A stretch of DNA of 64,000 nt. Source: Methanobacteriota archaeon. GTDB taxonomy: Archaea; Thermoplasmatota; Poseidoniia; Poseidoniales; Poseidoniaceae. The stretch spans positions 165,073 to 229,072 of the forward strand of contig JAYQHX010000002.1 of NCBI GenBank assembly GCA_038141355.1. Direction: 5' to 3'. The notes under the pieces are model-generated. The model was given only the letters and a program-made list of their open reading frames with translations. It had not been told where the DNA came from and did no database searches. Every line of letters starts with the position of its first letter. The first letter of the stretch is position 1. Below, piece by piece: positions 3,050 through 64,000 of the stretch. Position numbers and translations under genes: made by a program.

Positions 3050-5599
<2,550 letters not shown>

Positions 5600-40125: not shown

Positions 40126-40147
40126 ACGGGGCATCTCGCCAAGGCTG

Positions 40148-41321: not shown

Positions 41322-41466
41322 CTTTGAGCATATCTAATTGTCATACTTCCCATAAAATTTTGTCACATCTGGTGGAATATATATTTGCTTTTGCTTCAAT
41401 TCCTTGGTTTTCACTTAATTCACCGATAGTCATAATCGAATATTGTTTTACCCAATATTTTGTATG

Positions 41467-42150: not shown

Positions 42151-42496
42151 TTTATATCTTACTCCAACTGCTATGGAGAAATCACTTTTGTGAATGGTAA
42201 ATCAATGAATTGCATTGGGCTGATTGAATCAATTGAGAATTCACCTGATATTTGAGTTTCAAGTTTTGTAATACCTACCAAATCTGGCCAAATGATATAA
42301 TACAATCATTATCTCAAACTATCATGGATGACCAATTTTGAGGATTTTGAGGAAAAAGAAACCCCTGTTGAGGTTGCGAAAAAAATCATCTTAGTAGCAA
42401 TCGTTTGTGCGATGGTCATGGTTTTTTTTTCTTGGGAATGTGAAACTTAAAATCAGCATTAAATAATATTTAGAACTACTAATTTTTCAGAGGTTC

Positions 42497-44307: not shown

Positions 44308-44383
44308 GGTGGAATGTCATATAACGTAGTTATCAAGGCTTGTTTTATTCATGATTTTTGTTGGATTTCACAAGTCAATGTAT

Positions 44384-44815: not shown

Positions 44816-44910
44816 GTTATTTGTTATCCAGACCCAATCTATTTTGTTTATTATTTATCTGTTAATAAACATAACAATTCAAATATACTCATGCTGTTAA
44901 GCACGATTCC

Positions 44911-45948
44911 ATGAAGAGAGCCTTAACCTTGTTTTTGACCGTTTTATTATTGTCTCAAGTCGCATCATATTCGTTCAACGAAATTCCACCTCAAATCGAA
45001 TGGAAAGAGCACATGAAAGGAGATCCAGATTGGGAAGTTTCTGGACGAAACAACAATTCTACCGGAAACAATACTGGATGTGGTTATGACTGGAATTATT
45101 CGAGTATGTCCGCCTATGCAAACGGATATTCATTTTACATCGGTGATGATTACAATGTTTCAATTTATTCGTCGTGTTTACTATACAACGAAAATATGGT
45201 AATAAAATACAATGTTACTCATGTTTATTCCAACACAATTCTGACTTATGGTAGCTGGCAATGGGTGCCTACGAATCTAAGCAATTTGTCATCATTGCAT
45301 TATTTTGAGTCTCTCAATTTGCAAACAACTGGGGTTTACACAACACATATTGGACTATATCATTACAACGGTGCTTCAACTTATTCACTACTTGATAGCA
45401 CGTCTCATAATTTCACAGTTCAGAATAACACCAGTGGAAACAACACAGGTGGAAACAACACAGGTGGAAACAACACAGGTGGAAACAACACAGGTGGAAA
45501 CAACACTGGAGGAAACAACACAGGTGGAAACAACACTGGTGGAAACAACACAGGTGGCAACAACACTGGAGGAAACAATACCAGCAATCCGTGTGGAAAC
45601 AATTCTAATTACACCTATCTATACACTTGGTCTGATGCTTATTCGTACTATGTCGGAGACACAGTCACTCTTACCTGGTATGTCAATTGTACAGTAATTG
45701 GTGAAAACTACACCATTCATTCATTCTTAAGAAATTCTGATACTGGTAGCACTTACTATGGCGCCTACGATTTATGGTCTTGGACGGCTAACAGCAATTA
45801 TGCAAGTTTCAATGATTACATATCAAACGAGACTGTGGGCTACAACTGTCTGAATTCTTCCCTGTATGATGGCGCAGGGAACTTTTTGGATTCATATGTT
45901 CACTGTTTCTGGGTTTACAACAATACAAGCGGAAATAAATGGGAATAA
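44911..45948 (+). CDS. large exported Asn/Thr-rich glycoprotein, N-terminal fragment (frameshifted)
   Basis: Signal peptide MKRALTLFLTVLLLSQVASYS, two Tyr-rich modules, many N-x-S/T sequons and a (GNNTG)n linker. The frame is lost near 45937-45939. Confidence 0.7.
   Translation: MKRALTLFLTVLLLSQVASYSFNEIPPQIEWKEHMKGDPDWEVSGRNNNSTGNNTGCGYDWNYSSMSAYANGYSFYIGDDYNVSIYSSCLLYNENMVIKYNVTHVYSNTILTYGSWQWVPTNLSNLSSLHYFESLNLQTTGVYTTHIGLYHYNGASTYSLLDSTSHNFTVQNNTSGNNTGGNNTGGNNTGGNNTGGNNTGGNNTGGNNTGGNNTGGNNTGGNNTSNPCGNNSNYTYLYTWSDAYSYYVGDTVTLTWYVNCTVIGENYTIHSFLRNSDTGSTYYGAYDLWSWTANSNYASFNDYISNETVGYNCLNSSLYDGAGNFLDSYVHCFWVYNNTSGNKWE
45436..45585 (+). repeat. tandem 15-bp coding repeat, about 10 units (consensus GGAAACAACACAGGT) encoding (G-N-N-T-G)n
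   Basis: The units were read directly and differ only at synonymous or near-synonymous positions. Each unit contains an N-N-T sequon. Confidence 0.9.
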
Positions 45949-49161: not shown

Positions 49162-50235
49162 ATGCCAATTGAAATTCACGTCCTTGGAACATCATCTGCT
49201 AGGCCTGCACAGGGGCGTTCAGTATCAGGTTCCCTAGTAGAAACGGAGGATGGAATTTTTGTCGTAGATTGCGGTGAAGGATTTCAAAATAGACTTGTAG
49301 AACACCGGGCGAGATTAAAGAAGGCCGAATCTAAAAAACTCAAGGTCTCAAAAATCGCTGCCATCCTTCTGACGCATGGACATTTAGACCACACCTGGGG
49401 AGTTCTTCCTTGGCTCCAAACGATGGCACTTGATGGCAGAAAAGAATCACTTTGGATAATAGGTCCTACCTCTGAAGAAGTGATCGATGTTCTATTGGGA
49501 CAGGAAGGCGAACCAGAGGTCAGCCCATCAGATTTGGTAATTCAATATGATATGTGGATGGATTTAGGAGCCGTATCAGAGGAACTTGGATATGATTTAC
49601 TTTGGGTACTCGGAGACGGGAAAAGATGGGTTGATATGAATACTGGTAAGCAGATAGAGTTGCCCCAGCCATTGAAGAAATCTTCTATTGCTGCTATCAA
49701 CACTCAGCATACAGTTCCTTCTTTTGCATGGAAAATTTCAACCAAATCTCGAAAAGGCAAATTTGACAGAAATTCTGCAAAAGACCTACCGCAAGATGTG
49801 GTGATGAAATTAGCATCCGGTAATGATGCAGAGTATGATGGAGTCACGCTAAAATCTAGCGATTACAGAGGCCCTAGTTATGAACCGATATCGCTTGTAA
49901 TTTCAGGAGATACTGCTGAACAAGCGATTGAAACAACTTGCGACCTACTTATTCATGAGGCGACTTTCCTGCAAGAACATCAAGATATCGCGAATGAACA
50001 TTTACATTCAACAGCGGCAGGAGCTGCGAGAACAGCCATAGAATGCAGTGCAAAACATCTCGCATTGACACACTATTCTGCAAGACTAGACAGTGGAGAT
50101 ATGTCATTGGAAGAAGCAATGGAGATTCATGATTCAGTTTTCGCATTATCTGATGGAGATAGACTAGTGCTGGGAGATGATTGCTCCTTAACTCACCTTG
50201 TAAAATCAGAAGATGAATGGATGGTCAATGCTTAG
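49162..50235 (+). CDS. rnz: ribonuclease Z (metallo-beta-lactamase tRNA 3' endonuclease) with insertion
   Basis: VLGTSSARP, VVDCGEG, LLTHGHLDHTWG (HxHxDH), LIHEATF and HSTAAGAA…LALTHYS. At 357 aa it is longer than the usual ~300 aa. Confidence 0.8.
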   Translation: MPIEIHVLGTSSARPAQGRSVSGSLVETEDGIFVVDCGEGFQNRLVEHRARLKKAESKKLKVSKIAAILLTHGHLDHTWGVLPWLQTMALDGRKESLWIIGPTSEEVIDVLLGQEGEPEVSPSDLVIQYDMWMDLGAVSEELGYDLLWVLGDGKRWVDMNTGKQIELPQPLKKSSIAAINTQHTVPSFAWKISTKSRKGKFDRNSAKDLPQDVVMKLASGNDAEYDGVTLKSSDYRGPSYEPISLVISGDTAEQAIETTCDLLIHEATFLQEHQDIANEHLHSTAAGAARTAIECSAKHLALTHYSARLDSGDMSLEEAMEIHDSVFALSDGDRLVLGDDCSLTHLVKSEDEWMVNA

Positions 50236-50269
50236 GCAATTTGAAATTAGATAGGTATGTTGGCGTTTC

Positions 50270-52606
50270 ATGGGTCGACACATCTTGGTGGCATTCCTAC
50301 TAATCTCAGTCGTCTTTTCTACGGTTAATACTGCTACTGAAGGTAGAGCAGCACCACAATGTGCAGAATTTGACTTGTCTGATGTAATATCTTCAACAAC
50401 CGGAGTCGCAGTTGAACCCGATGCCTGTCTGATTGTTAACCTAGGTTCTAAGGAATCTGAAACAAAATTATCTATTGATATAGAAATCATGGATGATGAA
50501 ATGGATGTTTTGTTATTCGACCAAAACGGAATATCAGTTTACAATAATGGACAAAATTACCGCTCATCATTTGTTCCCGAAGGAAGTTTCGAATCACTGA
50601 TCGGTGAAAGATGGTTTGATTGGACTACTCCTCCCTCGATATCAGATAGAACATGGTATCTTGTCTTCGATAATACTGCCCATGATGGAGACCAAGGAAT
50701 GGGCGACCAAGGAGGCATGATTTCCAAATTTACTATTGATGTTCAACCGGCTGATGAGGTAGATTTCCCTCTGATTTTAGATACGTTTTACTTGCAACCA
50801 TCTGAACGATTGAATATGGTAGATTTCACTGTAGATTTCGGAACCGAATTAGATTATTGGGTACACCCTCTATCAGGGACTGGGGAATTTTTCATACAAT
50901 CAGATAATCAGTTAGGTGGAGATTTGAAAATATCAGGGTCAAGTTTTAGTCAGTTAGTTGATGACCAAAATTATGCTACTTGGACAGTTCCTGAATATTT
51001 GGATATGAAGAACTTGAATCTAATTGTAGATGCAGGAGTTGATGGTTTTCATTTTTCAATCGGAGCATGGTTTAGCCCAGTGCTGTCTCCTAATGTCGTC
51101 AATTACGTTAATGGAACCACAACAATTGGGGAATCAATCATCCTAGATGCAAGCAATTCTCCAAATAGCCTAAATCAAATCTCTTCTATTTCATGGGATT
51201 TCAATTCAGACGAAGTATTGGATGCTCAAGGTTTCATCGTAGAAGCTTCATGGAATACGCCGGGTCTGAAAACAGTGAATCTTACAGTTGAGTCATCCTC
51301 AGGCGAAGTTACCATGGTATCACATCAAATTACGGTTAATGATGTATCCAATCCAGTCGCTGTGATTAGTGGTTCTGGAACAAGAGGCATAGATGGCGAA
51401 TGGCGTTTGCTGAGATTATCTGATTTGGTTTTGCAATCATCAAATTCTTACGACGATCATCAAATTGCATCAATGACTTGGAGTGTTGATGGCACACCGA
51501 TGGCATCAACTAAGATGTTTACCGTAAGTTGGTCTGAGATAGGGACCTACAAAGTTATCTTAACCGTGGCTGACCCTACTGGAAATACTGATTCAACTGA
51601 AGCCATGATTGTAGTTTACGATTCGACAATTCCTGCGTTAGAGATGGCTTCAATCAAAGAAATATCACAAGTAAATCAGGGAGAGAATGTTGAATTTTCA
51701 GCAAATGCAGTAGACCTTTGGGATGACGATGAAGATTTGAGATTCACTTGGGATTTGGACCTTGAAAAAGATTCCAATGGAGATGGAGATTTGAGAAATG
51801 ATGCTGATTATACAGGCAGAATTCTTTCTATCTCATTCGAAGAAACCGGTCAATATAGTATTGGTCTCACAGTTTATGATGCCTCAAACAATACAGATTT
51901 TGAGATTTTTACTTTCCAAGTGGTCGAGGGGCCATCTAGTGCAAACTTATTCGCAATTGTTTCAGTGATTTTCTTTGTCATAATCATAGTATTAGGTGTA
52001 GTCTTATTCGGTTATAGAGGCGCTCAGCGCAGAAAAGCGATAGAGATGCTATTGCAAAATAATTTCACTTATGAACAAGCAAATGCGAGAATAAATGAAA
52101 TCGCAAATACCACAAAACTTCCATCCTTTGCAAAGGCAGAACAAATAGCAGGAATTTTAGACGGCGGTCAACTAAGGACTCCGGACCAAATTATGACAGA
52201 TGCCAAGGCTGCAGAAATGGCTCAAATCTACGGCAATGATTCAACGAATAATTTAGATCCAAACGCAGGATTTAGGCCACAATATCAACAAACAGCTTCA
52301 GTAAATCAGGCTGCACAAGAAGCCCTCGCAGCATTTGCGGACGAGAGTACAGTGCAAGCACAACCAACGCCAAAATCAGCGTCTGGAAAGGTGAGAAGTG
52401 GAGGGGTAGCATTGCCTGGGCAAAACTCGGTATCAACTCAACAAACTCCTCAAAAAAATACTACTCCACCCCCAGCACAGAATCACAATTTGATTGGAGA
52501 TTGTACTTCTTGTGGTCAAAAATTCTCGGTTAATATGCCACAAGGTGTCAATAGTGCAGTAGTATCTTGTCCCGGATGTGGCTCTGACCAATTATTTGAG
52601 CGTTGA
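50270..52606 (+). CDS. exported protein with three PKD-like modules, TM helix and cytoplasmic tail ending in a zinc ribbon
   Basis: Signal peptide VAFLLISVVFSTVNTA. PKD-like blocks are ISWDFNSD…GLKTVNLTV, MTWSVDG…GTYKVILTVADPTGN and FTWDLD…GQYSIGLTVYDASNN. The TM helix is LFAIVSVIFFVIIIVLGVVLFGY, followed by a Gln/Pro-rich tail and CTSCGQKF-x16-CPGCG. Confidence 0.75.
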   Translation: MGRHILVAFLLISVVFSTVNTATEGRAAPQCAEFDLSDVISSTTGVAVEPDACLIVNLGSKESETKLSIDIEIMDDEMDVLLFDQNGISVYNNGQNYRSSFVPEGSFESLIGERWFDWTTPPSISDRTWYLVFDNTAHDGDQGMGDQGGMISKFTIDVQPADEVDFPLILDTFYLQPSERLNMVDFTVDFGTELDYWVHPLSGTGEFFIQSDNQLGGDLKISGSSFSQLVDDQNYATWTVPEYLDMKNLNLIVDAGVDGFHFSIGAWFSPVLSPNVVNYVNGTTTIGESIILDASNSPNSLNQISSISWDFNSDEVLDAQGFIVEASWNTPGLKTVNLTVESSSGEVTMVSHQITVNDVSNPVAVISGSGTRGIDGEWRLLRLSDLVLQSSNSYDDHQIASMTWSVDGTPMASTKMFTVSWSEIGTYKVILTVADPTGNTDSTEAMIVVYDSTIPALEMASIKEISQVNQGENVEFSANAVDLWDDDEDLRFTWDLDLEKDSNGDGDLRNDADYTGRILSISFEETGQYSIGLTVYDASNNTDFEIFTFQVVEGPSSANLFAIVSVIFFVIIIVLGVVLFGYRGAQRRKAIEMLLQNNFTYEQANARINEIANTTKLPSFAKAEQIAGILDGGQLRTPDQIMTDAKAAEMAQIYGNDSTNNLDPNAGFRPQYQQTASVNQAAQEALAAFADESTVQAQPTPKSASGKVRSGGVALPGQNSVSTQQTPQKNTTPPPAQNHNLIGDCTSCGQKFSVNMPQGVNSAVVSCPGCGSDQLFER

Positions 52607-52668
52607 AAAACCCTCTAAATTGATACTAACAAGGGCTAGATTCATTTGGGTTAAGAGCCTGAAGTATC

Positions 52669-55600
52669 TTGATGTCAGCAGAAAGCATCCGCGTACTTCA
52701 TGCTGGCGTGCCGCGACCTTTTGACTCTAAGAAGGTAGCAATAGTTCTAATTCTCGTAATGATGATGCCAATTTACAGTCCAGTACATGCAGACCAAACA
52801 GTCGGTAGAGATGACTTCGGAATTTTGGCTGCTATGGTTGAAGCCTTAAGTGAGGAAGAAAATTCAGGAGAAGATGAATTGGCAAAAAATTCCGCTGAAG
52901 GAATTTTATCAGCGTTAGAGTCTCGAGGTAGAGAAATAGCCGATGGTGATGCCTTATTAGCAACTGAGGATATCATTGGTGATATCCAAATGCGGCAAAC
53001 CGATCCATTAGAACCAATGCATCCAAGGCCGTATGTCTACCTTACAGACCCTACAACGCACCCTGAAGGTTGGCCAAACAACTTATTGGATACTTTATTT
53101 GACCCACCAACTCTTTCTGACCCATTAGCAATAGGTATCAACACATATTCACTTTACGTCAATTACTCTGCTAGAAATAATGGTCCACAATATGAGGCAT
53201 GGGATTATGGGACCTTCACTGGTGACGTGCTTTCTTTTAATGGAGCAGGTTTGTTCGAGAATGCTGTTGATTTAGATGGTGACACAAATCCGGATGTAGC
53301 AGTAGGCCTGTCAATCCTAGGGTTAGGTCAACAAGGAGAGGGCTGGGACGTAAACTTCGGTGGTGGCCTTATTCCAACCGTCGAATCGATTTGGATAAAA
53401 CCTAACTTTCAATGGCGCGTTCGTGTAATGGATTATTCAGACCCACTATGGGATGATATGGCAAACATGGAAGTATCCTTCATCAAGGGTGTAGCATATG
53501 ATTTGGCATTACCAACTACCGAAGCTGAATCATATGGGCTCGTTATCGATTCAAGATTCACACAACCACCTAGCGATTTCCAGGTCAGAGTCGGATTAGA
53601 TAAAATGACACTTAATGTCGTTGGAACGGTACTGTCCCTAGTAGATGTAATCAATATCTTCAACGGCGGGGATGATTCAGTATTCGAGGTAACATCTGTT
53701 ACCGCCCCATATTCTGTATTAATGTCAAATCCAAATGAGAATTCTGCTAATGAACAGACTGATTGTGAAGATTCCTCTTGGTATGACCCCATAGCAGACC
53801 ATGATTCATCAAGTAGGGAGCATAAGTGTGGATATTCTATTGGCATAGGTTATGTTCATTTTTTCCCAGCGGATTCAAATGGCGATAGGCCAGTAGATGA
53901 AATTGGATACATAGATATTGGACTTCATCCAACTTTAGGCAGTACGCTACTTCCTGAAGAAGTAGATTTCGTAATCCGTAATGATAACGCTGGAGATAAT
54001 TCGTTTGATAATATCGAAATTTTCACTGATACTGATTCTGATTTATGGTTCCATTATTATGAAGATCGTTCTAACCACATGGAAGCAGGAGGTCGATTTG
54101 GAAATATTACTGACTCACGTGGATGGGTACGTGATTTGCCAAAAGGAACCTTGCCGCAAGAAGAAATTAATGCTATTTTTACAATGATAGGGGAGGCACC
54201 GGGATCGGTCAACTTACCCGGAGATATGCCAAATCGCCTGTCTCTAATTATCTCTATCAAGAATTTCACGGCTGATAATTCAGTCAATCAAGCGGGCTCA
54301 AATCTAATTATTGACCCCTCTGATAGTAGGTGGAACAGCTTAATACTGATTGCAGGAACTGAAAAGGTTCCTAAATTACAATATGTATCAACATTCCAAA
54401 GGCATGGATATGAAAACGATGCCTCATCTCTTTCAGTTGAAATTACAGACTTGCCAGAAGTAATTGCGATTTTTGGAACATTTGAGATACCGGCATCTAA
54501 TCGCGTCAGAGTTGAATTTGGAACTGCACCAGATTTGTTAAGCGAAGTATTGGATAATGTCGTATTGAACCTGGTAGAAATTGTTCTCGATATTGGAACG
54601 ATTCTGAATGGTTTGCCAAATGCAATTGTTGGAACAGCAGGCGAATCAAGTGGTGAGATATTCCTACAATGCTACTCTCAAGTGAAGAATTCATGGTCTG
54701 ATAATTCCCAAAGATATGTGGAAACCGTAGGCTCTATTCGATTAGGACTAGGTAGTAATCCTCACCCTGTAATGGACAGGAGTCACATTATTCTGGCTGA
54801 AGATTCAGATAACTCAAATGTAATGGGAAGATACGGCCCCGCACCAACATTAGTTCCAGTAGCAATGAGTTTGAGAGTTGATGATATTTCGGGATTATCA
54901 TATTCCTATGACCAAAATTCTGACCTTAGAACAATCTCTTTGAACGGAATTTCAGGTGATGAATTAATTATTGGTCATTTGAATCATTTTGAGAATACCA
55001 CTGATGGAGACGTTCAACAATTTGCATCGATATCTAACAGGCCAGAGAACCTAACAATTGCTCAACAAGGGTCAAAAATCAGTTATTCTGCGACAGGAGA
55101 AATTGGAACCATTACTTACAGTGGTGAAGGAAATGGCCAGTATAATGCATTGAGGCTAATCGATTTGCCCTCGGAGTTCGACTTAGAATTAGGCGATACG
55201 TTAAGTTTGAATGCGCCCGCAGGAATAGGTGCTATCGAGGTACAGATTTCTAATGCTACAACTCCTTTGACGATGGATGATGACCATGCAAGATTTTGGA
55301 TTAACCAAAATGAAGCAGAGGCTAGTATGTCATTTAGATTATCTAATCTTACATCTGTGTATCTACTTCCTCCAGAACAACCAGGTGCTGTTGGAGTCGC
55401 TGGAAATAGTAGATTGGTAATGAACAGAACAGGTTCGTCACCATTTAGCATGCTATTGGAGGATGTTAGCGACAGGGATGATGAATTCCTAGGATTAAAT
55501 GGGAAAATATTCCTAGACCCTCTACCCGCAAACGCTACACTATCTTTGCCTTCAACTGAAAATTCCGAGATGATAACCATCCCTCAATTTGGCCAACAAG

Positions 55601-57306
55601 ATGGAATTTTATCACTTTCCTTCTTCTTATCAGGTATGATTGATTTCGGTAGTTCAGTTAACGATTTTGCATTGGAAAGCATGGTTAATCTTGGGGATGC
55701 ATCCAATGTTATGGACAATGTTAGTTTAGGTTTAGATTTGTACACTGGCGAAGAATTTGATCTTACTCTCGACGTTGAAAAAGGGGTTAACATCGATGAA
55801 ACACCTCAATGGGTCCATGGAATCTCTGGCGAAGTTTTGGAAGCAACAGAACTTGTATTCAATTATTCAATAATGGAGAATTTTACCGCGAGTTCAAGAT
55901 TTGTGGTCAGTGAGGCATTCAAAGATTGGACCATTACAGAAGAAGAGAGAGAGAATGTAATCAATGCATTATCTTGGGCAGGAATTAGCCAAAGTGAAAA
56001 ATTAGTAGATGTTATGTCTGATGGTTATCTATCGGAATTAGAATTAGCAGAAATCGATACAGCCAAGCTATTTTCTGAGGGGGTTGATTTTGACCAAAGA
56101 AGGTCTTGGCATGTGAAAATTTGGTTGCCTCAATTGCCGTCTGGTAGGATTCTACTTACCTATGACTTGACTGTGAACGAAGATATACCTACATTTGATA
56201 TAAAATCAATAATGGAAGATTGGACTCCAGCAAGACCAGTATTCAAGATACAGGTTAATGGATTATCTGGAACGGATACTCTTCTAGTTCTGTCTGGATT
56301 AGATACAGAATTAACTAGAGATATTAACATTGAAATGTCGATTACAACCGAATCGGATATGATAATTCCAAGAACAACAATAGATGCGACTTACGATATT
56401 GGTGAAAGAATCGATAACGCACATATATTGCAAAACAATAGAGTTCGAGGCATTCGAACTGAAATGGTGCTTTTCGATGCACCAGCCAGCGCCAATTTAT
56501 ATTCGAAAATTGGAGACATATTGCAAGCGAATCTGAATGTAACTCCAATGGATAGAATCGGTGTTAATGCGGCTGACTCCCTGATGCTTCAACAACTGAG
56601 AAAGGTTGACGGATTGTGGTGGCCTTCTACCATGTTCATCAAAGACGTTCCTGGTGAAATGTATCTCAGGGCCCAACCTTCTGATAGATATGATATTCAC
56701 GAAGTAACTTCATTCCAAGGTATGTTTGAATTGAATTATTATTCAAACAGTGATGAAATGGATTTGTTTATTGAAACAAAGGGTAAGGCCCAAAATGCAA
56801 GAAGAAGCAATTTGATGCTTGCAGAAAACTTGCCGACTAGTTTTACTATGGAAGTCACAGAAGACTTTGGTGCAAGAATCTCCGCTTCGGGTAATGGTGT
56901 TGAGCGTCTTTACATCAGAAGCGGAGACTCAATTCCTGCGGAAGGTGTAAAATTAATTTCAGCAGAATTAGTTGGAGAGAATTTACAAGGCGCCGAAGTA
57001 CACCAAAACATGATTTTTGGATATCCTATAATCGTCGTTGATGGAATTACTGGTGGAAGAATAGTTGCCACAGCACATGCCGAAGTAAATGTCTTAGGCA
57101 TTCAAATAGACGGAAGAGGCGTCCTACTCGACGCCCAATTTACAGGTGGAATACCCACTGCATCCAGTGTAGGAGTAAACGGAGTAGTCACCGACTTATC
57201 TTTGATTGGTGGATTAACTGGCGGTAAGATTGAAACTACCCACATCATGATTGTAGATCCATTTTCATCTCTAATAGCAACTGGTATTGCGGGGGTGTTT
57301 GGATGA
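52669..57306 (+). CDS. giant (1545 aa) exported protein, no recognisable domain
   Basis: One uninterrupted ORF with an N-terminal anchor/signal KKVAIVLILVMMMPIYSPVHA and a short hydrophobic C-terminus LIATGIAGVFG. I could see no internal repeats or known motifs. Confidence 0.7.
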   Translation: MMSAESIRVLHAGVPRPFDSKKVAIVLILVMMMPIYSPVHADQTVGRDDFGILAAMVEALSEEENSGEDELAKNSAEGILSALESRGREIADGDALLATEDIIGDIQMRQTDPLEPMHPRPYVYLTDPTTHPEGWPNNLLDTLFDPPTLSDPLAIGINTYSLYVNYSARNNGPQYEAWDYGTFTGDVLSFNGAGLFENAVDLDGDTNPDVAVGLSILGLGQQGEGWDVNFGGGLIPTVESIWIKPNFQWRVRVMDYSDPLWDDMANMEVSFIKGVAYDLALPTTEAESYGLVIDSRFTQPPSDFQVRVGLDKMTLNVVGTVLSLVDVINIFNGGDDSVFEVTSVTAPYSVLMSNPNENSANEQTDCEDSSWYDPIADHDSSSREHKCGYSIGIGYVHFFPADSNGDRPVDEIGYIDIGLHPTLGSTLLPEEVDFVIRNDNAGDNSFDNIEIFTDTDSDLWFHYYEDRSNHMEAGGRFGNITDSRGWVRDLPKGTLPQEEINAIFTMIGEAPGSVNLPGDMPNRLSLIISIKNFTADNSVNQAGSNLIIDPSDSRWNSLILIAGTEKVPKLQYVSTFQRHGYENDASSLSVEITDLPEVIAIFGTFEIPASNRVRVEFGTAPDLLSEVLDNVVLNLVEIVLDIGTILNGLPNAIVGTAGESSGEIFLQCYSQVKNSWSDNSQRYVETVGSIRLGLGSNPHPVMDRSHIILAEDSDNSNVMGRYGPAPTLVPVAMSLRVDDISGLSYSYDQNSDLRTISLNGISGDELIIGHLNHFENTTDGDVQQFASISNRPENLTIAQQGSKISYSATGEIGTITYSGEGNGQYNALRLIDLPSEFDLELGDTLSLNAPAGIGAIEVQISNATTPLTMDDDHARFWINQNEAEASMSFRLSNLTSVYLLPPEQPGAVGVAGNSRLVMNRTGSSPFSMLLEDVSDRDDEFLGLNGKIFLDPLPANATLSLPSTENSEMITIPQFGQQDGILSLSFFLSGMIDFGSSVNDFALESMVNLGDASNVMDNVSLGLDLYTGEEFDLTLDVEKGVNIDETPQWVHGISGEVLEATELVFNYSIMENFTASSRFVVSEAFKDWTITEEERENVINALSWAGISQSEKLVDVMSDGYLSELELAEIDTAKLFSEGVDFDQRRSWHVKIWLPQLPSGRILLTYDLTVNEDIPTFDIKSIMEDWTPARPVFKIQVNGLSGTDTLLVLSGLDTELTRDINIEMSITTESDMIIPRTTIDATYDIGERIDNAHILQNNRVRGIRTEMVLFDAPASANLYSKIGDILQANLNVTPMDRIGVNAADSLMLQQLRKVDGLWWPSTMFIKDVPGEMYLRAQPSDRYDIHEVTSFQGMFELNYYSNSDEMDLFIETKGKAQNARRSNLMLAENLPTSFTMEVTEDFGARISASGNGVERLYIRSGDSIPAEGVKLISAELVGENLQGAEVHQNMIFGYPIIVVDGITGGRIVATAHAEVNVLGIQIDGRGVLLDAQFTGGIPTASSVGVNGVVTDLSLIGGLTGGKIETTHIMIVDPFSSLIATGIAGVFG

Positions 57307-57845
57307 CCGATGAGTTCGATGACCCTGAATTGCATGAAATATCCCAAGAAGTGGGTCAATTCGTGAAGGATTTATCTGAGAAAGTCCATCCGCTTCGTGT
57401 CGCTTTAGCTGGCATAATTATGCTAATAATAATCGGGTCACTAATTTCAACATGGTACTGGGTGATTCCGCGTGATGATGTCGAAATCAAGACCATGTAT
57501 ATTCAAAGAAATGGCCATGTTGTAATGGTCGAATTGATTAACGACGGAAGCAGACCTATCAATGACGTAAGGTTGCTCGTCGAATTTATTGATTCTGAAA
57601 ACAATGTTATTGGTGAAATCGATGAATCTTTCAGTGAAATAGATAGTTTGACCAGTGTTTCAGGAGACCGTATGGAAATGATAATTTTCGGATACAGTGT
57701 TTGGGAGGAATATACGATTAGTATCATGATAGATTGGGTAGATTTCAGAGGTCAAGAAAATTCACAAACATTTACCCACAAAGTTTCCGAAATCCAAAAC
57801 ATGCGCTTTGTTGATGATTGTAAAGGCGCAACTTGGTTTTTATGA
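57303..57845 (+). CDS. single-pass membrane protein with small beta-rich ectodomain
   Basis: 180 aa with TM helix LRVALAGIIMLIIIGSLISTWYWVI. It overlaps the giant gene by 4 nt (ATGA) and the protease gene by 13 nt. Confidence 0.5.
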   Translation: MTDEFDDPELHEISQEVGQFVKDLSEKVHPLRVALAGIIMLIIIGSLISTWYWVIPRDDVEIKTMYIQRNGHVVMVELINDGSRPINDVRLLVEFIDSENNVIGEIDESFSEIDSLTSVSGDRMEMIIFGYSVWEEYTISIMIDWVDFRGQENSQTFTHKVSEIQNMRFVDDCKGATWFL

Positions 57846-59815
57846 GTCTTCTAGTAATAATACCTAAAACCCACTCTCCACGCCCTAATAATGTGCGTAA
57901 AGCAGTCTTACTCTTGTTTATTCTGCTTCTTTCAAGCGCCCCTATGGGCTCTTTTTCTGAAGTTCAAGATGAACAGGAAGACATAGAATGGATTAAATTT
58001 GATTTACCTAAAGACACTATTCGTAACTTTGTTGGCACATTAGACAATTCATTGGCATTAGAAAACAGGTCTGTAATTGCCCATTCAAGACTAGGAATAC
58101 ATGATTCAAAAGGTACCTTGTTCAACCTAGAAATTCCTGAAGAATTATTGGTGACTAGGCCAGATTTGGCTCTGATTTTAGTTTCTAATGACCATCGGTT
58201 TGCAGAGGTTAGATTCGAAATCGATGAATTACCTGGTGTGGAAGTTAGGGAGTTTATCGCTCCATCAGGTCTATTGGTTCAAGGAACACAATTTGGCTTG
58301 AATTCAATAAAGGATATTGTGGGTGTATCAGCAATTCAACCAGTTCCGATTGCGATGATGGTGGATGAATATTTGATGAATGCTGATGTTGGAACGGAAG
58401 TGCGAATAGAATCTTGGAGAGGAGATGGATTACTTCCAGGGGTTGATATTTCAGATAGTTGGAATATGAGATTACATCAGGGAATAGAATCGGTAGCAGA
58501 TCAGATGCTTGAAGACTCTAAAATTGCTGAAACCGGAAGATATGATGGAGTCACTCTTGCAGAAATAGCAGAAATTGTTGCAGAGCCTTCAGTAGCATGG
58601 ATAGGCGAACAACCTAAACTAACAAACTGGAATGACCAAGCAAGAAATCACATGAATATTAACGCAATGCGATCCTATTACACAACAGACCTTGATGGTT
58701 CAGGTCAAATCGTTGCTGTTGCTGATAGCGGTCTAGATGCAGACCACGGAGATTTCGGTTCAAGAGTTATCGCTAGTGTTGACCTAATTGGTGATGGTTC
58801 AACTGCAGATGCTCATTCAGGACATGGTACTCACGTTTCATGTACAGTGTTAGGGGACGGCTCGAGGGGAACCTATTCAGGTGTAGCGCCTGAAGCAGAA
58901 TTGTATTTTCAAGCGATGGAGAATGATAACAACGGAAATTTTCAATGGAGCAGTATCAACAATATGTTGAATACTGCTTACAACCAAGGCGCTCGTATTC
59001 ACACAAATAGCTGGGGGTCTTCCTCATCTAATGACTGGGGGAGATATACTGCCTCTTCTGAAGATGTAGATGATAGAACAAGATACTACGACCAATACTA
59101 CAGTGGTAGAGAGGGATATGTCGTATTATTTGCAGCAGGAAATGATGGCCCAGATAGTGGGACAGTGGGCGCTCCAGGTACAGCGAAGAATACTATCACT
59201 GTAGGTAATTCTCAGAACAGATATCAAGGCTCGCCAAACTCGATAATGGATGGTTCTAGTAGAGGCCCAGTCGATGATGGAAGAATAAAACCAGACATCA
59301 TTGCTCCCGGTGGTTATGTTCGCTCGTGTAGAGCTCAGGAAGCGACAGACACTGCGGGCGCTACATGGTCAAATTCGTGGTATCTAGAATACACTGGAAC
59401 CAGTATGGCTACTCCAAATGCAGCAGGTACAGCAGCATTAATTCGAGAATATATCACTGAAATTTCCCAACGCCCTGAGCCACAAGGTGCTCTTGTCAAG
59501 GCTCTAATGATACTTGGAGCAAGGGATGTTGGAACTAGAGATATACCGAATATGGATGAAGGTTGGGGGAGAATTGACCTAAAAGGTACTTTAGCGCCTT
59601 CTAATGGAAGAGGAATATGGGTAGATGATCGGTCTGTTCTATCGTCATCAGGCAATTCAAAGAGTTATAATTTCAATATAACTTCTCCAGGTCAAGGCTT
59701 CAAAGCAGTATTGGCATGGTCTGATGAAAGAGGTTCTAGATTTTCAAATACACAACTTGTGAATAATCTCAATCTATTGAGTTACTACTCCAAGTGGAGT
59801 CGAATACAAGGGTAA
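57833..59815 (+). CDS. S8 (subtilisin-family) serine protease, N-terminal fragment (frameshifted)
   Basis: Catalytic triad contexts VAVADSGLD (Asp), HGTHVSCTV (His) and GTSMATPNAAG (Ser). The frame is lost at about 59780 inside the conserved post-catalytic block LVNNLNL|. Confidence 0.88.
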   Translation: MVFMSLLVIIPKTHSPRPNNVRKAVLLLFILLLSSAPMGSFSEVQDEQEDIEWIKFDLPKDTIRNFVGTLDNSLALENRSVIAHSRLGIHDSKGTLFNLEIPEELLVTRPDLALILVSNDHRFAEVRFEIDELPGVEVREFIAPSGLLVQGTQFGLNSIKDIVGVSAIQPVPIAMMVDEYLMNADVGTEVRIESWRGDGLLPGVDISDSWNMRLHQGIESVADQMLEDSKIAETGRYDGVTLAEIAEIVAEPSVAWIGEQPKLTNWNDQARNHMNINAMRSYYTTDLDGSGQIVAVADSGLDADHGDFGSRVIASVDLIGDGSTADAHSGHGTHVSCTVLGDGSRGTYSGVAPEAELYFQAMENDNNGNFQWSSINNMLNTAYNQGARIHTNSWGSSSSNDWGRYTASSEDVDDRTRYYDQYYSGREGYVVLFAAGNDGPDSGTVGAPGTAKNTITVGNSQNRYQGSPNSIMDGSSRGPVDDGRIKPDIIAPGGYVRSCRAQEATDTAGATWSNSWYLEYTGTSMATPNAAGTAALIREYITEISQRPEPQGALVKALMILGARDVGTRDIPNMDEGWGRIDLKGTLAPSNGRGIWVDDRSVLSSSGNSKSYNFNITSPGQGFKAVLAWSDERGSRFSNTQLVNNLNLLSYYSKWSRIQG

Positions 59816-59876
59816 TGAATTCTCTCAAGGAAGGTCTATTCAAGGCGGTATTTATGACACATTAAACAACGTTGAA

Positions 59877-61919
59877 GTGGTATTAATCGATTCTGCTGAA
59901 GCAGGGATATGGACTGTAAAAGTCACAGATTCTCAACATTCTGGAACCAAAGCACAACCTTATGCAATTGCAGTTTCAGGAATCGGGGTAAATGATTTGC
60001 GTCCTGACCCCGCACCTATTTTGACCTCATTTTCAACCGATATAGCAATTCCTCAGGTTGGAGATGACGTTCTGGTTGAGATGGAAATTTCCAATTTAGG
60101 GAATGTTGAGGCAGAAAATGTCGAGGTTCAATTCCAAGAAGAAGGTCAGGTAATCGATACTCAAACCTTCGATTTGGGACCAGGAGGGTCTAGAATTCTG
60201 TTCTGGGATTGGCAACCTCAAGTTGCAGGTGCCAGAACTCTAAGTTTCGTTGTAGATAGAAATGACTTAATTGATGAAATTAACGAAGCTAATAATCAAC
60301 TCGACATAATAGTGAATGTCACAACACCAGGGGTTCGAATAGAATCTGACCAATCACAAATTGTGCTGACAAATATCAATGCAACATCTTCTTCATGGCA
60401 AATAGAATTAACGAATACCGCTCTGCTTTCAACGAATGCTACTATTACTTCTGTAAATGTTCAAAATCCTGACGGAGATGTTGTGCCATGGTATGTCGGT
60501 TTTGACATAGTTGATTTTCAATTGAATGGGCAACAAAGCGCTTCAATCAATGTAACTCTGGTTCATCCACAAGGTCCCGACCCTGGACTTTACAGCATCA
60601 ACTTGCTAGGCATTGATGAAGATAACAGTGTTTCAAGTCCCTATTCTTTAATCTTGGATGTACCAATACTCTCGATGACAAGAATTGAGTTTGATTATAC
60701 CAAGATACCAGTTCATCCTCAATCAACTACGACAGTGGATGTTAGATTATACAATCTAGGTAATGACAATCTTGGGTATGACGTATTTTTAACCCCTCCT
60801 CCTGGATGGTATGCAGGTTTTGACGATCTTTCTGCACAGGGTGGTGCAAATTCAGCATCTACAGGTTTGATGTTGGAAGATGACATGATTAACATGAAAA
60901 TTTCATTCACTCCACCAAGTGTAATGACTTTGGCTAGTACCGAACTTACAGTAGTATTGCAAGTTATCTCTCAGACGGAAGAGAATCGTATGTTTGAATA
61001 TGATTTACCAATAATAGTTATTCCAGTAGCCAATTTAACTTTAGATCTAGAAACCACTATTGGCACAATCTTGCCAGATAGCACATTTTCTTTACAATAT
61101 ACTCTTGAAAATCGAGGTAATATCGACTTGAATCTTCAGCCAAGATTACAATTACCACTTGGATGGATTCAAAATACACAAATAGATGAAATCAATCTGT
61201 CGTGGACAGATTCACTAAATTTACAGGTATCGGTAACAGCAACAAGAGAAGCAAAATCTGGAAAGATAGACTTCATACTAGACAATACTCAATTCACTTG
61301 GATTAATTCAGTTAATGTCTCCATTGTGAAATTGCCAGATCCAACTCTTACTTTCGCCAGCGTTGAGATAGGTGAAGAGACATGGTCGAATATCTTCGGG
61401 TCAGGCAAGCATCCATCCGGTGTTCCGATTAATTATACATGGTTGGTAGAAAATAGAGGAGAATCTGCTTGGGAGGCTGATGTAATTTTGTCACTTGGCC
61501 AAGATTTGTTTGGGGATTGTGAAAGCCTACCATCTATTGGTATTGGTGAGATTGTGCCATTGAAATGTACAATTCTTATTTCAGCCACAGCAGCTCCGAT
61601 GTCGGAACCTAGTTTCGGTATTCTTCTCGAGGATGATTTTGTTTCAATCAACCGAACAATTTCGATGCTCGTCGCAGAAACAAAGGAAGTTTCATGGAAG
61701 GTATTAGCCCCTGCTAAAATTGAAACAGGCCAGCCAGATGGAATTCAAATTACCATAACAAATCTAGGTAATGTAAGGCTGACAAGCGCAATTAATATCT
61801 TACCTCCAAGCGGTTGGACTGTCAAATTCGATGGATTAGATTCTATTGATATTGAAGCAGGGCAATCGCAAATAGTTAGGTTTGAAGTGACTGCAAAAAC
61901 CCCGGAACTGAAAAAATAA
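59877..61919 (+). CDS. same protease, C-terminal fragment with CARDB-like repeats
   Basis: The frame is open from 59781 and reads VTTPSGVEYKGNEF…NNVEVVLIDSAEAGIWTVKV…QPYAIAVSG, the expected continuation of S8 P-domain-type proteases. A CARDB-like module follows (DLRPD…GDDVLVEMEISNLGNVEAENV…NEANN), then further Ig-like repeats. Confidence 0.8.
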   Translation: MVLIDSAEAGIWTVKVTDSQHSGTKAQPYAIAVSGIGVNDLRPDPAPILTSFSTDIAIPQVGDDVLVEMEISNLGNVEAENVEVQFQEEGQVIDTQTFDLGPGGSRILFWDWQPQVAGARTLSFVVDRNDLIDEINEANNQLDIIVNVTTPGVRIESDQSQIVLTNINATSSSWQIELTNTALLSTNATITSVNVQNPDGDVVPWYVGFDIVDFQLNGQQSASINVTLVHPQGPDPGLYSINLLGIDEDNSVSSPYSLILDVPILSMTRIEFDYTKIPVHPQSTTTVDVRLYNLGNDNLGYDVFLTPPPGWYAGFDDLSAQGGANSASTGLMLEDDMINMKISFTPPSVMTLASTELTVVLQVISQTEENRMFEYDLPIIVIPVANLTLDLETTIGTILPDSTFSLQYTLENRGNIDLNLQPRLQLPLGWIQNTQIDEINLSWTDSLNLQVSVTATREAKSGKIDFILDNTQFTWINSVNVSIVKLPDPTLTFASVEIGEETWSNIFGSGKHPSGVPINYTWLVENRGESAWEADVILSLGQDLFGDCESLPSIGIGEIVPLKCTILISATAAPMSEPSFGILLEDDFVSINRTISMLVAETKEVSWKVLAPAKIETGQPDGIQITITNLGNVRLTSAINILPPSGWTVKFDGLDSIDIEAGQSQIVRFEVTAKTPELKK

Positions 61920-62302
61920 TGATATCTTTGTCCGATGAAGGCATCATTAACCCCAGTACAGATATTGAAATCACTAGCGAGGGTGATGTTGTTCTAGATG
62001 AGAAATCTAATATCAATCTGTTGATTATGTCTGGAATTAGTGTACTTATTCTACTATTTGCTGCAATTGCTATCTTCAAATCTCGTTCAAAAAGGCAGGC
62101 GTTTGAATTGCCAAAAACTCAAATTTCGCCGACAGCCGTAGCCCCGGCTGTGGCAGCAATACAGTGTTTTTCTTGCAGATTGGCTATAGAAGGCCCTATG
62201 TTGGGGTGCTCTAGTTGCGGTGCTCGCTACCATTTGGCTTGCAGTGTGGCGAATTGTGTACATTGTAACGCAGATAAATCAGCAATAATAAACGCTGCCT
62301 AG
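61919..62302 (+). CDS. TM helix plus Cys/His finger protein (possibly the true C-terminus of the protease)
   Basis: 127 aa with TM helix LLIMSGISVLILLFAAIAIF, then CFSC-x10-CSSC-x4-H-x2-C-x4-C-x2-C. The ATG overlaps the protease stop after an A6 run (61911-61916). One extra A would fuse the two frames. Confidence 0.5.
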   Translation: MISLSDEGIINPSTDIEITSEGDVVLDEKSNINLLIMSGISVLILLFAAIAIFKSRSKRQAFELPKTQISPTAVAPAVAAIQCFSCRLAIEGPMLGCSSCGARYHLACSVANCVHCNADKSAIINAA

Positions 62303-62329
62303 ACTGAAACAAACAGACATAGGCTTTTC

Positions 62330-64000
62330 ATGGGAGTACCCCGACCGGGGTTCATGGAACCCCGCCAAAGACACCTGAGAGGCGAGAAAAAATGGTCTAG
62401 CATTTTGTTAGTTTCATTACTCATGATTTCTTTAATCCCAGCAATCGCTAATCCGGTCGCTGCAGATGATGAAGGTAGGGCAATTAGTGTATCAATGTCA
62501 ATTAATCCAAGCGCTCAAACTGTAAACCCTGGAGAGACAGCGGAATACACGATTATCATTCAAAATATGGGATCTGATCCTGTCACAGTTCAATTAGCAG
62601 CAAATAATGATGCAGAGTGTACTGGATATTCAGCTGCTGTTGGACAAATAGCTGGACCAATTGATTCGGGTTCAAGTGAAGAAACATGGTTGAATGTCAC
62701 CTTATCTCAAACAGCAGAAGATTCGTGTGTCACTACTGTGACTGCTACGATTACGGAACAGGTCACTCCACCTACTCAGCCAGAACAAAAAGAAGCTACT
62801 GCTACGACGACTGCTGGAGATGGTTCAGGTTCTACTCTGTTCGGAGTGGATTTGATTCGAGACGGGCCAGTAAACAGAAATTGGAACGGTGAATCAACAA
62901 TCGTCTGGGATGTTGAAGTTGAAAACACAGGCCGCGTGCAAGAAACGGTTGACTTAACTGTAAACACCCGTTCCGGCGCAGGCTGTAATCAAGATGGCAC
63001 ATTCACAATTGATGTGGACCCTTCACAAGTCACAATCGATAATGGTTCATCGGAATGGGTCACTGTGACGCTCGAAGTTCCCGATGGAAAGTCCGCAAAG
63101 AAGTATTGTTGGGAGGTCACAGGTGTAGTGACAAATGACCAAAATCCAAATGGTAGCGCAGAAGACACCGAAGATATCAGTCTAACAATACCCGAACTAA
63201 AGAAATGTGATGTTGAATTGTCAAAAACAAGCATGAGCATCAAGCCGGACGAAACAGGAACCCTGGTTGCAACATTCCTCAACGAAGGTAATACTGCTTG
63301 GTCTGTAAATGTTGGGTTCAATGGTACGCCTGCAGGCTGGTCTGCTTCCGTTGATGGAAGTACATCTGGAAATTTGGCAATAGATGGTGAGAGAGAATTC
63401 ACCATTGACATTACTCCAACAGATTCAATTGAAGCAAATACTCAACGCAGTTTCTTCATTGAAGGTAAAGATGGAAACATGTGGAAATGCCGCTCGAGTA
63501 TATCGATCACCGTTGGACAATCTCGCGGCGCTACAATGTCACTTGGAAACACTGCATTATACGATGTAATTCCGGGTCAAAGTGAGACTACAACATTGTC
63601 AGTGACGAATCAAGGAAACGGACAAGATACATTCAGGGTTTCTTCGTCATCTCCTCCAACCGGTTGGGCCGTTTCTTTTGAGAGTACAACGATTACAACT
63701 GGTTCAAAACATAGCAATGAAAAAACTGGGACAATAGAAGTAACGATTTCATTGCCGGCTGATGCCCTAGCTATAGATGAAGAAGTACTGACTTTCTCTG
63801 TATATCCGACCTCAGGAGGAGGCGCATACGATACTGCTGAATTAACGATAACAGTTAGAGCAGTACATGGCATGACTGGATCTGCTAGCGCTGATGAGCA
63901 GGTAGGCAGCTCGCAATCAGAAGTTGAATTCCCAATCACAGTAAATAACGAAGGAAATACCATTGACCAGTTTAGATTTTCAGTAATTTCTCAAACAGCT
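62330..64000 (+). CDS. exported protein built from repeated CARDB/NEW3-like beta modules, 5' part (runs off the window end)
   Basis: The frame is open from the stop at 62300-62302 to base 64000 and is missing from the track only because it has no stop. Candidate starts are the ATGs at 62330 and 62354. The signal peptide is KKWSSILLVSLLMISLIPAIANPVAA. Repeated motifs are NPGETAEYTIIIQNMGSDPV, DETGTLVATFLNEGNTAW, PGQSETTTLSVTNQGNGQDTF and EVEFPITVNNEGNTIDQF. Confidence 0.65.
   Translation, partial: MGVPRPGFMEPRQRHLRGEKKWSSILLVSLLMISLIPAIANPVAADDEGRAISVSMSINPSAQTVNPGETAEYTIIIQNMGSDPVTVQLAANNDAECTGYSAAVGQIAGPIDSGSSEETWLNVTLSQTAEDSCVTTVTATITEQVTPPTQPEQKEATATTTAGDGSGSTLFGVDLIRDGPVNRNWNGESTIVWDVEVENTGRVQETVDLTVNTRSGAGCNQDGTFTIDVDPSQVTIDNGSSEWVTVTLEVPDGKSAKKYCWEVTGVVTNDQNPNGSAEDTEDISLTIPELKKCDVELSKTSMSIKPDETGTLVATFLNEGNTAWSVNVGFNGTPAGWSASVDGSTSGNLAIDGEREFTIDITPTDSIEANTQRSFFIEGKDGNMWKCRSSISITVGQSRGATMSLGNTALYDVIPGQSETTTLSVTNQGNGQDTFRVSSSSPPTGWAVSFESTTITTGSKHSNEKTGTIEVTISLPADALAIDEEVLTFSVYPTSGGGAYDTAELTITVRAVHGMTGSASADEQVGSSQSEVEFPITVNNEGNTIDQFRFSVISQTA

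Follow-up and report, generated by a model that had tools for sequence, protein, structure and literature searches.

Two archaeal cell envelopes provide the closest described parallels to the locus examined here, which occupies positions 50270-64000 of a 64,000-nucleotide (nt) stretch of DNA from a Poseidoniaceae archaeon (Marine Group II a, MGIIa); this whole stretch is called the window, and all coordinates are given in its numbering (1-64,000). The large proteins of the two envelopes, SlaA of the Sulfolobales and tetrabrachion, measure about 1,400 and 1,524 amino acids (aa), respectively. The genes slaA and slaB are adjacent and bicistronic (PMC5744192). In Staphylothermus marinus, the S-layer protein tetrabrachion carries a bound protease of the subtilisin family, STABLE, which has been proposed to process an envelope precursor and to supply peptides to this peptide-consuming archaeon (PMC5744192). 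At the present locus, a giant exported protein (hereafter the giant) is encoded directly ahead of a small single-pass membrane protein, in the neighbourhood of an S8 protease (subtilase) and two further surface proteins.

Five genes follow one another there on the + strand, as do all features of the locus given below. Gene 1 (50270-52606) encodes a type-I surface protein of 778 aa with PKD repeats; gene 2 (52669-57306) the giant of 1545 aa, or 1544 aa from its probable start, ATG 52672; gene 3 (57303-57845) the small single-pass protein of 180 aa; gene 4 (57842-62302) a membrane-tethered subtilase of about 1486 aa if intact, which the window breaks into three open reading frames (ORFs); and gene 5 (62330-64000) an immunoglobulin (Ig)-like/NEW3 repeat protein that is cut by the window end, where its frame of at least 557 aa is still open. 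The main reference for these gene models was a 69-kb metagenome contig, L005 (the labels L001-L098 denote loci of relatives), in which gene 5 encodes 976 aa. Export or membrane anchoring is predicted for each of the five products, from signal peptides, hydrophobic N-terminal segments or transmembrane helices, and all have an isoelectric point of 4.1-4.4. An earlier, sequence-only reading of the window had drawn the same ORFs (apart from that of the protease), N-terminal signal or anchor helices and spacers (62 nt between genes 1 and 2, an ATGA overlap of giant and small gene at 57303-57306, and 27 nt before gene 5, counted from 62330), all of which were reproduced. It had also counted six genes and joined them into a single transcription unit, possibly for one stoichiometric complex. 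The extra gene, an ORF of 127 aa, proved to be the C-terminus of the protease: the array consists of five genes, because gene 4 is a single ORF of 1486 aa in L005, which is 98% identical. The reading preferred here, to which I would give a probability of about one half, is that of a five-gene cell-surface neighbourhood of Marine Group II archaea (MGII, Poseidoniales), in which an ancient and portable envelope pair, the giant and the small protein, forms the core and stands among independently anchored surface proteins.

The likeness to SlaA/SlaB lies in the arrangement, a gene for a very large, Sec-exported, beta-rich protein directly upstream of a gene for a small single-pass membrane protein, and in the conservation of the pair as a unit across a lineage, which is found for giant and small gene as well. 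It does not extend to sequence or fold: no PDB sequence was matched with the family profile of the giant, and Foldseek retrieved nothing at E<1e-3 from PDB or BFVD with structural models of the giant (TM-scores <=0.14). The SlaB-type anchor combines a C-terminal transmembrane helix with a coiled-coil stalk, whereas the small protein has an N-terminal transmembrane helix (aa 31-57), an ectodomain of about 120 aa and no heptad-like region. The codon bias of the giant, a proxy for the abundance to be expected of a lattice protein, is average and does not support very high expression. The likeness to tetrabrachion, namely a giant envelope protein with an S8 protease, is at this locus one of gene adjacency only. 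Tetrabrachion has a long right-handed coiled coil as its stalk, in contrast to the nearly all-beta structure predicted for the giant, and the two have no sequence or fold relationship; moreover, the protease of the locus, unlike STABLE, has a transmembrane anchor of its own and therefore needs no docking on another protein. To my knowledge, tetrabrachion/STABLE is the only described precedent for an envelope protein combined with a subtilase. The view of the sequence-only reading that no described system has such a composition agrees with what was found in Pfam, NCBIfam, PADLOC and the MGII literature searched, and the MGII comparative-genomics papers and searches consulted contain no mention of this neighbourhood, of the giant family, of an S-layer or envelope of MGII or of these genes in a proteome.

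The pair stands out through its persistence outside the Poseidoniales. Seven loci of this kind were available, four with called genes, two from ORF lists and one cut at a contig end; in all six that extend past the giant (L090 and L094-L098, with 21-28% identity to the giant), a homologous small transmembrane protein begins 4-20 nt after it. The surroundings of the pair vary: it lies between Pus10 and translin in L090, between a divergent ABC transporter and acetyl-CoA synthetase in L095 and L096, and between a major facilitator superfamily (MFS) transporter and SMC in L094, the same MFS/SMC surroundings being probable for L097 and L098 from the position and length of an ORF of 1201-1204 aa. 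None of the seven loci has a protease, PKD or NEW3 gene adjacent to the pair. Within the Poseidoniales, an automated and partly noisy estimate of the boundaries puts the gap between giant and small gene at -4 to +5 nt in 63 of 68 loci; the other junctions typically measure 25-75 nt. The retention of the pair alone in distant loci, along with this tight gap, identifies an old and self-contained two-gene unit: giant and small gene are an ancient unit, and the other three genes are its Poseidoniales-specific neighbours. This runs counter to the proposed stoichiometric complex, given that the seven non-Poseidoniales loci keep the giant and small pair only.

The small protein, whose ORF and single transmembrane helix had been described correctly, possesses an acidic cytoplasmic N-terminus, a transmembrane helix that ends in WVIPR (57393-57473; aa 31-57 of 180) and a beta-rich extracellular domain of about 120 aa with an N-x-G-S/T motif. 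Alignments of the small proteins share a transmembrane helix ending in (W/Y)-x-V-I/V-P-R, the N-x-G-S/T motif, an invariant G, Y-x-I and V-x-P, and the flank ahead of the helix is arginine-rich in L094, L097 and L098. Searches of domain libraries returned no family for it. As a side observation, Pus10 is found 0.2-8 kb upstream of the pair in non-Poseidoniales loci (L090 3614-4855, L095 4149-5357, L096 865-2166); the Pus10 gene of the window (9743-11425), which includes a SAP domain, lies 41 kb from the pair, and this linkage may be a remnant of ancestral synteny.

The giant begins with a signal peptide ending in ...SPVHA/DQ, followed by a beta-rich body with a few long hydrophobic helices, a strongly conserved C-terminal region of about 95 aa and a short hydrophobic tail. 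Its description as an orphan holds: it matches no Pfam, NCBIfam or PADLOC family, and six diverse members of its family have no Pfam match at E<=1. The structure prediction that the sequence-only reading had proposed, which led to no Foldseek match as said above, gave AlphaFold2 models of aa 43-760 and 741-1545 with a predicted local distance difference test (pLDDT) score of 73 and 77 and a predicted template-modelling score (pTM) of 0.74 and 0.75; both are almost all beta. Conservation is even along the protein, and the C-terminal 95 aa belong to its best-conserved segments (identity score 0.70-0.71); despite this conservation, the last 56 residues have a pLDDT of 28-40 in the monomer model, and a conserved C-terminus modelled in this way would be consistent with folding on a partner. 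The protein has three cysteines. Comparison of 150-aa segments with hhalign disclosed no internal repeats (best pair, 47% probability).

Orthologues of the giant number in the hundreds, all unannotated, and those among the 120 best matches measure 1416-1593 aa with 45-99% identity; full-length orthologues overall range over 1297-1593 aa, and homology is full-length even at 24% identity. The exact sequence of the window's giant has no database record, owing to the choice of start codon. The most distant full-length members (1297-1354 aa, 21-28% identity) have relatives named 'Thermoplasmata archaeon', including the close relatives of L090 and L094. The family is narrow, as only 186 matches at E<=1e-3 were found in a HMMER search of 1.84 billion representatives. 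W-x-H-G and D-x-D-x-D-type motifs are invariant in it. At the distance of L004, the giant is 45% identical, compared with 41% for the metallo-beta-lactamase (MBL)-fold enzyme encoded upstream of the array and 30% for the PKD protein.

Several identities considered for the giant were rejected. A repeat-built adhesin is at odds with the hhalign result, and an alpha-2-macroglobulin-like trap (MG, A2M and thioester domains) with the lack of any Pfam match at E<=1 in the six members, the Foldseek TM-score to complement C4 being 0.06; as for an Rhs/teneurin shell or a lipid-transfer fold (TULIP/LptD/ApoB), Foldseek gave noise-level matches only. By eye, no archaeosortase signal of the PGF-CTERM type is visible: the protein ends in ...VDPFSSLIATGIAGVFG, with no PGF, full-length transmembrane helix or basic tail. 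Two local features may be recorded beside these. An acidic D-x-D-x-D loop at aa ~200-215 (~53266-53313; NAVDLDGDTNPDV), conserved in Poseidoniales and reading DVDNDPATG in distant members, resembles calcium-binding loops, and a C-x20-C pair with a nearby His at aa ~366-387 is invariant within the Poseidoniales and absent from distant members.

The wider neighbourhood was surveyed in the best 80 loci from a scan of one genome per GTDB species, which found the giant in 206 species. The order and strand of PKD, giant, small, S8 and last gene were consistent in 80/80 species loci; all five genes are present in 56 of them, the rest being cut by contig ends. The same order recurs in a Thalassarchaeum (MGIIb) locus, assigned through its L15e cluster, at 32% giant identity, and in a locus at 29%. 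Gene order is thus conserved well beyond chance, and the expectation that related archaea would keep it was borne out. The flanks are collinear too, with ribosomal protein L15e and a PRC-barrel gene upstream and nuoA-D downstream; as these housekeeping flanks are equally conserved, the order speaks for a syntenic backbone no less than for a functional module. In L093 (a 3.0-Mb contig, 34% identity), the order is the same but four unrelated genes, two of them on the opposite strand, separate PKD gene and giant.

These data bear on the proposal that the array is a single operon for one stoichiometric surface complex of protease, adhesion folds and giant scaffold, acting as an envelope proteolysis and adhesion machine. 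It agrees with the consistent order and strand of the five genes in the surveyed loci of both Poseidoniales families, with the ATGA overlaps of giant/small and small/S8 in the window and the short gaps elsewhere, and with the precedent of a subtilase bound to a giant S-layer protein in tetrabrachion/STABLE. The second of these overlaps replaces one previously given as 13 nt (57833-57845): that figure stands if the protease starts at a TTG, but with ATG 57842, the start used in L005, the junction becomes ATGA. Tight packing is, however, nothing exceptional for the window, whose other same-strand junctions measure -4, -4, +8, +9, +32 and +34 nt, including those of the L15e, PRC and MBL genes just upstream, so that unrelated genes are spaced as tightly. 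Together with six independent Thermoplasmata loci in which the pair stands without the rest of the array, the insertion in L093, the equally syntenic L15e, PRC and nuo flanks, and the conserved junction sequences to which I turn now, this makes the single-operon, single-complex proposal the least supported one, and I regard it as distinctly unlikely.

Short conserved blocks lie in three of the spacers. The first, TAGGCAATTTGAAATTAG (GGCAATTTGAAAT-like), at 50233-50250, overlaps the stop codon of the MBL-fold gene and is a candidate promoter or regulatory site of the PKD gene; a block of GGC-N-TTTGAA type recurs ~20-35 nt before the PKD ATG in loci of 30-98% protein identity, in surroundings that are unalignable. 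The second, AGGGCTAGATTCATTTGGG (AGGGCTAGATTCA-like), at 52632-52650, lies 22-40 nt before the giant ATG 52672 and may serve the giant-small unit as a promoter or regulatory site; 19 diverse loci keep an RGGG-ATGGTTTC-like block there, the intergenic sequence being otherwise unalignable, and in L006, L002, L052 and L064 the stop codon of the PKD gene is followed immediately by a run of five to eight T (oligo-T, T5-T8). The third, CATAGGCTTTTCATGGG (CATAGGCTTTTCAT-like), at 62318-62334, is a candidate promoter of the last gene, with a CATAGG(C/G)TTTT(C/G)AT block ~25 nt before the start of that gene in L012, L040, L041, L052, L069, L004 and L085; from its position, the real start of gene 5 is probably M9, ATG 62354. 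Likewise, in species with a small/S8 gap of ~56 nt, a CGATAAA block stands ~30 nt upstream of the S8 gene. These blocks and oligo-T runs would be internal promoters and terminators. Conserved blocks or oligo-T runs at the PKD/giant and S8/last junctions, at small/S8 in many species, and also before the PKD gene, together with the detached PKD gene of L093, speak against one transcription unit. A scan for sigma-70 promoters and rho-independent terminators, which does not apply to an archaeon, gave shuffle-level counts, and Rfam has no family in 50270-64000.

How the pair might work can be outlined as follows. The giant would be a Sec-exported, beta-rich protein of 1,300-1,590 aa without recognisable fold, and the small gene would be translationally coupled to it, yielding a single-pass product of 150-240 aa with its N-terminus inside and a beta-rich ectodomain directly on the membrane. 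The small protein would then tether the giant to the surface through the conserved C-terminal ~95 residues and short hydrophobic tail of the latter, so that the giant would become a stationary part of the envelope, in an arrangement that resembles the two-protein S-layer of Sulfolobus though unrelated to it. That the small protein may hold the giant at the membrane is suggested by the strict adjacency of the genes, by the N-in/C-out topology predicted for the small partner and by the conserved C-terminus of the giant, disordered in the monomer model. Around the pair would stand three surface proteins of type I, separately anchored and each probably transcribed from a promoter of its own, namely a protein of PKD repeats with a zinc ribbon, a subtilase of the KP-43 kind on a CARDB/NEW3 stalk and an Ig/NEW3-repeat protein.

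Several points weigh against this scheme. A major lattice protein is expected to be highly expressed, and the codon bias of the giant shows no sign of very high expression: the effective number of codons (Nc) of the giant gene is 48.6 and that of the small gene 55.5, the norm of the window being 45-53, and it is ribosomal protein L1 (42) and Spt5 (41.5) that codon bias separates from the rest, the giant lying at the genome average. Nor are N-glycosylation sequons enriched, the 13 in 1545 aa being close to the composition-based expectation. High conservation, near-fixed length and the lack of repeats are unlike a typical, fast-evolving S-layer protein or adhesin and may indicate an enzymatic or machine-like role. 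The N-terminal anchor of the small protein, devoid of a coiled-coil stalk, departs from SlaB, and the function of the giant, its binding to the small protein and its structural role are all deduced from context. With regard to the promoters, a crude regular expression, meant to generalise the blocks genome-wide, was not clearly enriched upstream of window genes in either of two counts (5/33 against a background of 10.7%, and 10/33 against 18.6%), which leaves cross-species conservation as the basis of the promoter reading. In view of the average codon bias, the unenriched sequons and the high conservation, the giant is taken as a tethered envelope component with moderate confidence.

The main rival is a surface-bound binding or catalytic role for the pair, for example in capturing polymers or hydrophobic substrates, with the array consisting of five independent surface proteins held together by synteny only. 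The region from L15e to nuoA is indeed collinear across the order, and the enzyme-like conservation of the giant, its fixed length, average codon bias and lack of repeats, as well as its invariant motifs, would suit such a device. The top Foldseek matches, though non-significant (E >= 2e-3, TM <= 0.14), are beta-sheet proteins that handle lipids or ligands (ApoB100, LptD, CETP, FadL); these matches are, however, at noise level, and no catalytic or binding domain is detectable in the giant. In addition, giant, small, S8 and last gene remain contiguous in L093 though the PKD gene has moved, which hints at selective linkage within the Poseidoniales. On balance, this rival appears rather unlikely, and an envelope pair tethered by the small protein is preferred in what follows.

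The protease gene needed correction before it could be interpreted. It had been described as an S8 protease of about 1360 aa, followed, after a 1-nt overlap at 61919, by a separate 127-aa protein with a transmembrane helix and a Cys/His finger. In the window, the protease region comprises the + strand ORFs 57833-59815 (660 aa), 59877-61919 (680 aa) and 61919-62302 (127 aa): the first frame stops at 59815 and the coding sequence resumes in another frame. Window and L005 are 97.9% identical across 18.5 kb, and within 50270-64000 they differ by only two indels, both inside this gene. At 59780, a 1-nt insertion (an extra A in ATCTATTG-A-GTTAC) shifts the frame, and the expected protease sequence (...LVNNLNLLVTTPSGVEYKGN...) carries on in the next frame past this point. 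At 61901, alignment to L005 reveals a 1-nt deletion beside an A/C run (GCAAAAAC-CCCGG, compared with GCAAAAAATCCCGG in L005), which restores the original frame, shared by 57842 and 61919 as simple arithmetic confirms, and so gives rise to the apparent 127-aa ORF. In L005, the protease is one ORF of 1486 aa from the equivalent of ATG 57842 to that of the stop at 62302, with the supposed finger protein as its C-terminal anchor and tail; other relatives have 1457-1551 aa, and in L001 the gene is uncalled solely through a 100-N scaffold gap. An intact S8 ORF is thus absent from the window sequence and present in L005, and the 1-nt overlap at 61919 is an artefact of the frameshifted gene.

An assembly error is the most likely origin of both frameshifts. 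Compared with L005, isolated 1-nt indels occur at 47291 and 48106 as well, and these too disrupt conserved ORFs; homopolymer runs are the site of two of the four, and S8 matches fall in a single frame in 71/71 other loci that have one. The four isolated indels suggest an indel-prone assembly. That the protease is a true pseudogene of this strain, with two real frameshifts and a decaying neighbourhood, might be argued from the occurrence of two ORF-breaking indels in one gene and from the position of that at 59780 outside any homopolymer; yet the other indels break conserved genes as well, including the start of a SpoU methylase, half of the four are of the homopolymer kind, the coding sequence is otherwise undamaged and near-identical to that of L005, and the other loci keep their S8 match in frame, so that decay seems very unlikely. 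Programmed frameshifting or recoding was ruled out, for relatives read straight through and the second indel just restores the frame.

Once assembled from its pieces, the protease comprises, in order, a signal peptide, an N-terminal region of ~260 aa, an S8 domain with jelly-roll (KP-43-like), CARDB, NEW3/Ig-like modules, a predicted transmembrane helix (62018-62077) and a finger. Peptidase_S8 (PF00082) matches the 660-aa piece with E 8e-50 and 170 bits (cut-off 21.8) over profile positions 1-288, and CARDB (1.6e-15) and NPCBM_assoc/NEW3 (3e-12) match the C-terminal part, in the 680-aa piece; the PKD, Peptidase_S8, CARDB and NPCBM_assoc/NEW3 assignments of the sequence-only reading all hold in these profile searches. 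The motifs VADSGLD, HGTHVS, NSWG and GTSMATP begin at aa 293, 328, 389 and 519 of the 57842 frame, so that the triad in the order Asp-His-Ser (D ~58724, H ~58823, S ~59402) and the oxyanion Asn of NSWG (N ~59006) are all in place. The protease matches KP-43 in PDB (1wmd) with E 3e-75 over aa 264-695, including the C-terminal jelly-roll, and its likeness to the KP-43/SubHal subtilases (1wmd, 5fax) consists of this catalytic domain and beta jelly-roll. KP-43 differs in being a secreted Bacillus enzyme of 434 aa, to which the protease of the locus adds the ~260-aa N-terminus, ~700 aa of CARDB/NEW3/Ig-like modules, the transmembrane anchor and a C4HC3 finger. By sequence, it is an ordinary KP-43-like subtilase, predicted to be membrane-tethered.

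Each metagenome-assembled genome of MGII has between one and four genes for S8 subtilisins that are predicted to be extracellular (PMC6864105), and the highly transcribed genes of MGII include a subtilase (PMC9723583). Along the same line, the subtilase of the locus would act as an exoprotease fixed to the cell, cutting proteins from the environment at its surface so that peptides can be taken up, and it may also process neighbouring proteins of the locus. A defence system with an S8 protease (IetS/IteS) was considered and rejected: the IteS model scored 37.9 bits against a cut-off of 900, PADLOC gave generic subtilase or partial IetS matches only and no match for the other four proteins, and the locus is embedded among housekeeping genes. 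Protease complexes of the dentilisin and mycosin types were dismissed too, their generic S8 similarity being far under the cut-offs.

Genes 1, 4 and 5 all encode type-I proteins, with a signal peptide and a C-terminal transmembrane helix followed by K/R residues, and are standard Ig-like mosaics of the kind known from archaeal and bacterial CARDB/NEW3/PKD surface proteins (PF07705, PF10633, PF18911). In gene 1, the signal peptide is followed by an unassigned N-terminal domain, three PKD modules (PKD_4 3e-20, PKD 1e-15), a predicted transmembrane helix (51947-52015), a low-complexity cytoplasmic linker of ~170 aa and, by its CxxC-x21-CxxC pattern, a C-terminal zinc ribbon (52502-52582); the match to Zn_ribbon_8 (2.4e-3) is below cut-off, and every orthologue inspected, whether from MGIIa, MGIIb or deeper, has the ribbon. 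The last protein matches NPCBM_assoc (6e-10), FixG_C (1.8e-8) and, just short of the cut-off of 70, choice_anch_T (66.6 bits); it has no PDB sequence match and, in L005, ends in a transmembrane helix and KRRF. The domain make-up claimed for both proteins thus stands, with a weak ribbon in the first and a NEW3/FixG_C/choice-of-anchor-T-like composition in the last.

Unlike the standard mosaics, the products of genes 1 and 4 end in conserved cytoplasmic tails that are predicted to bind zinc. That of the protease (62165-62266) follows the C4HC3 pattern C-x2-C-x11-C-x2-C-x4-H-x2-C-x4-C-x2-C, whose core 'CGARYH' is kept in MGIIa and MGIIb and missing in the L002 lineage; Pfam zf-HC5HC2H_2 gives a weak, PHD-like match (19 bits, cut-off 27). 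I know of no role assigned to zinc-binding tails on archaeal surface proteins. A free-standing double-zinc-ribbon protein of 156 aa follows the small gene in L094 (14818-15288). A more far-reaching idea would make the pair the principal S-layer-like envelope system of MGII and related Thermoplasmata, based on a fold without known relatives, with subtilase and Ig proteins integrated into a 'digestive' surface, much as STABLE is with tetrabrachion, and the zinc tails coupling it to a cytoplasmic partner; I consider this improbable.

Elsewhere in the window, the genes upstream of the array encode ribosomal protein L15e, a PRC-barrel protein, an MBL-fold hydrolase, a SpoU methylase and FtsZ; L15e, FtsZ and the names of homologues assign the window to the Poseidoniaceae. 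The indel at 48106 falls within a run of C where the SpoU methylase gene begins (230 aa in the window, 246 aa in L005), and that at 47291 near the 3' end of a thrombospondin-type-3-repeat (TSP_3) gene (44911-47467), which forms one ORF of 818 aa in L005 and two of 345 and 533 aa in the window. This gene also contains a divergent, indel-rich stretch of ~800 nt (45939-46739) between strains that are otherwise 98% identical, resembling a hypervariable segment of a surface protein. The region 40001-46000 is low in GC (0.35-0.38, against 0.41-0.45 in most of the window) and has several ORFs without Pfam families; a 102-nt Rfam match to tRNA, missed by ARAGORN and with a probable intron inside, lies at its start (40148-40249), and integration of a genomic island at a tRNA gene may account for the region. 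On the - strand, a catalase-peroxidase gene of the KatG type (3050-5218) has an Nc of 39, a codon bias much stronger than, or different from, that of any other window gene (45-55), and may have been acquired horizontally. Finally, an M14 carboxypeptidase gene (31823-34189) overlaps a transporter gene of the sodium:neurotransmitter-symporter family (34186-35877) by 4 nt, and the two plausibly form a coupled unit that links protein degradation with amino-acid uptake.

In surface oceans, Marine Group II archaea rank with the most abundant archaea; they are uncultured, and extracellular protein is presumed to sustain them. Important as these organisms are, nothing at the locus is mechanistically surprising yet, and if the pair were just another surface protein, the finding would amount to a routine cluster of conserved hypothetical genes. 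Those components that have known relatives, the degradative tethered subtilase and the surface proteins with Ig-like repeats, are ordinary, and the corrected gene model turns the protease into one gene with an anchor and zinc finger of its own. The unusual part is the giant with its small partner, a pair of protein families that has no Pfam or NCBIfam model and extends across several Thermoplasmata lineages; with it, the locus supplies concrete candidates for components of the MGII envelope.

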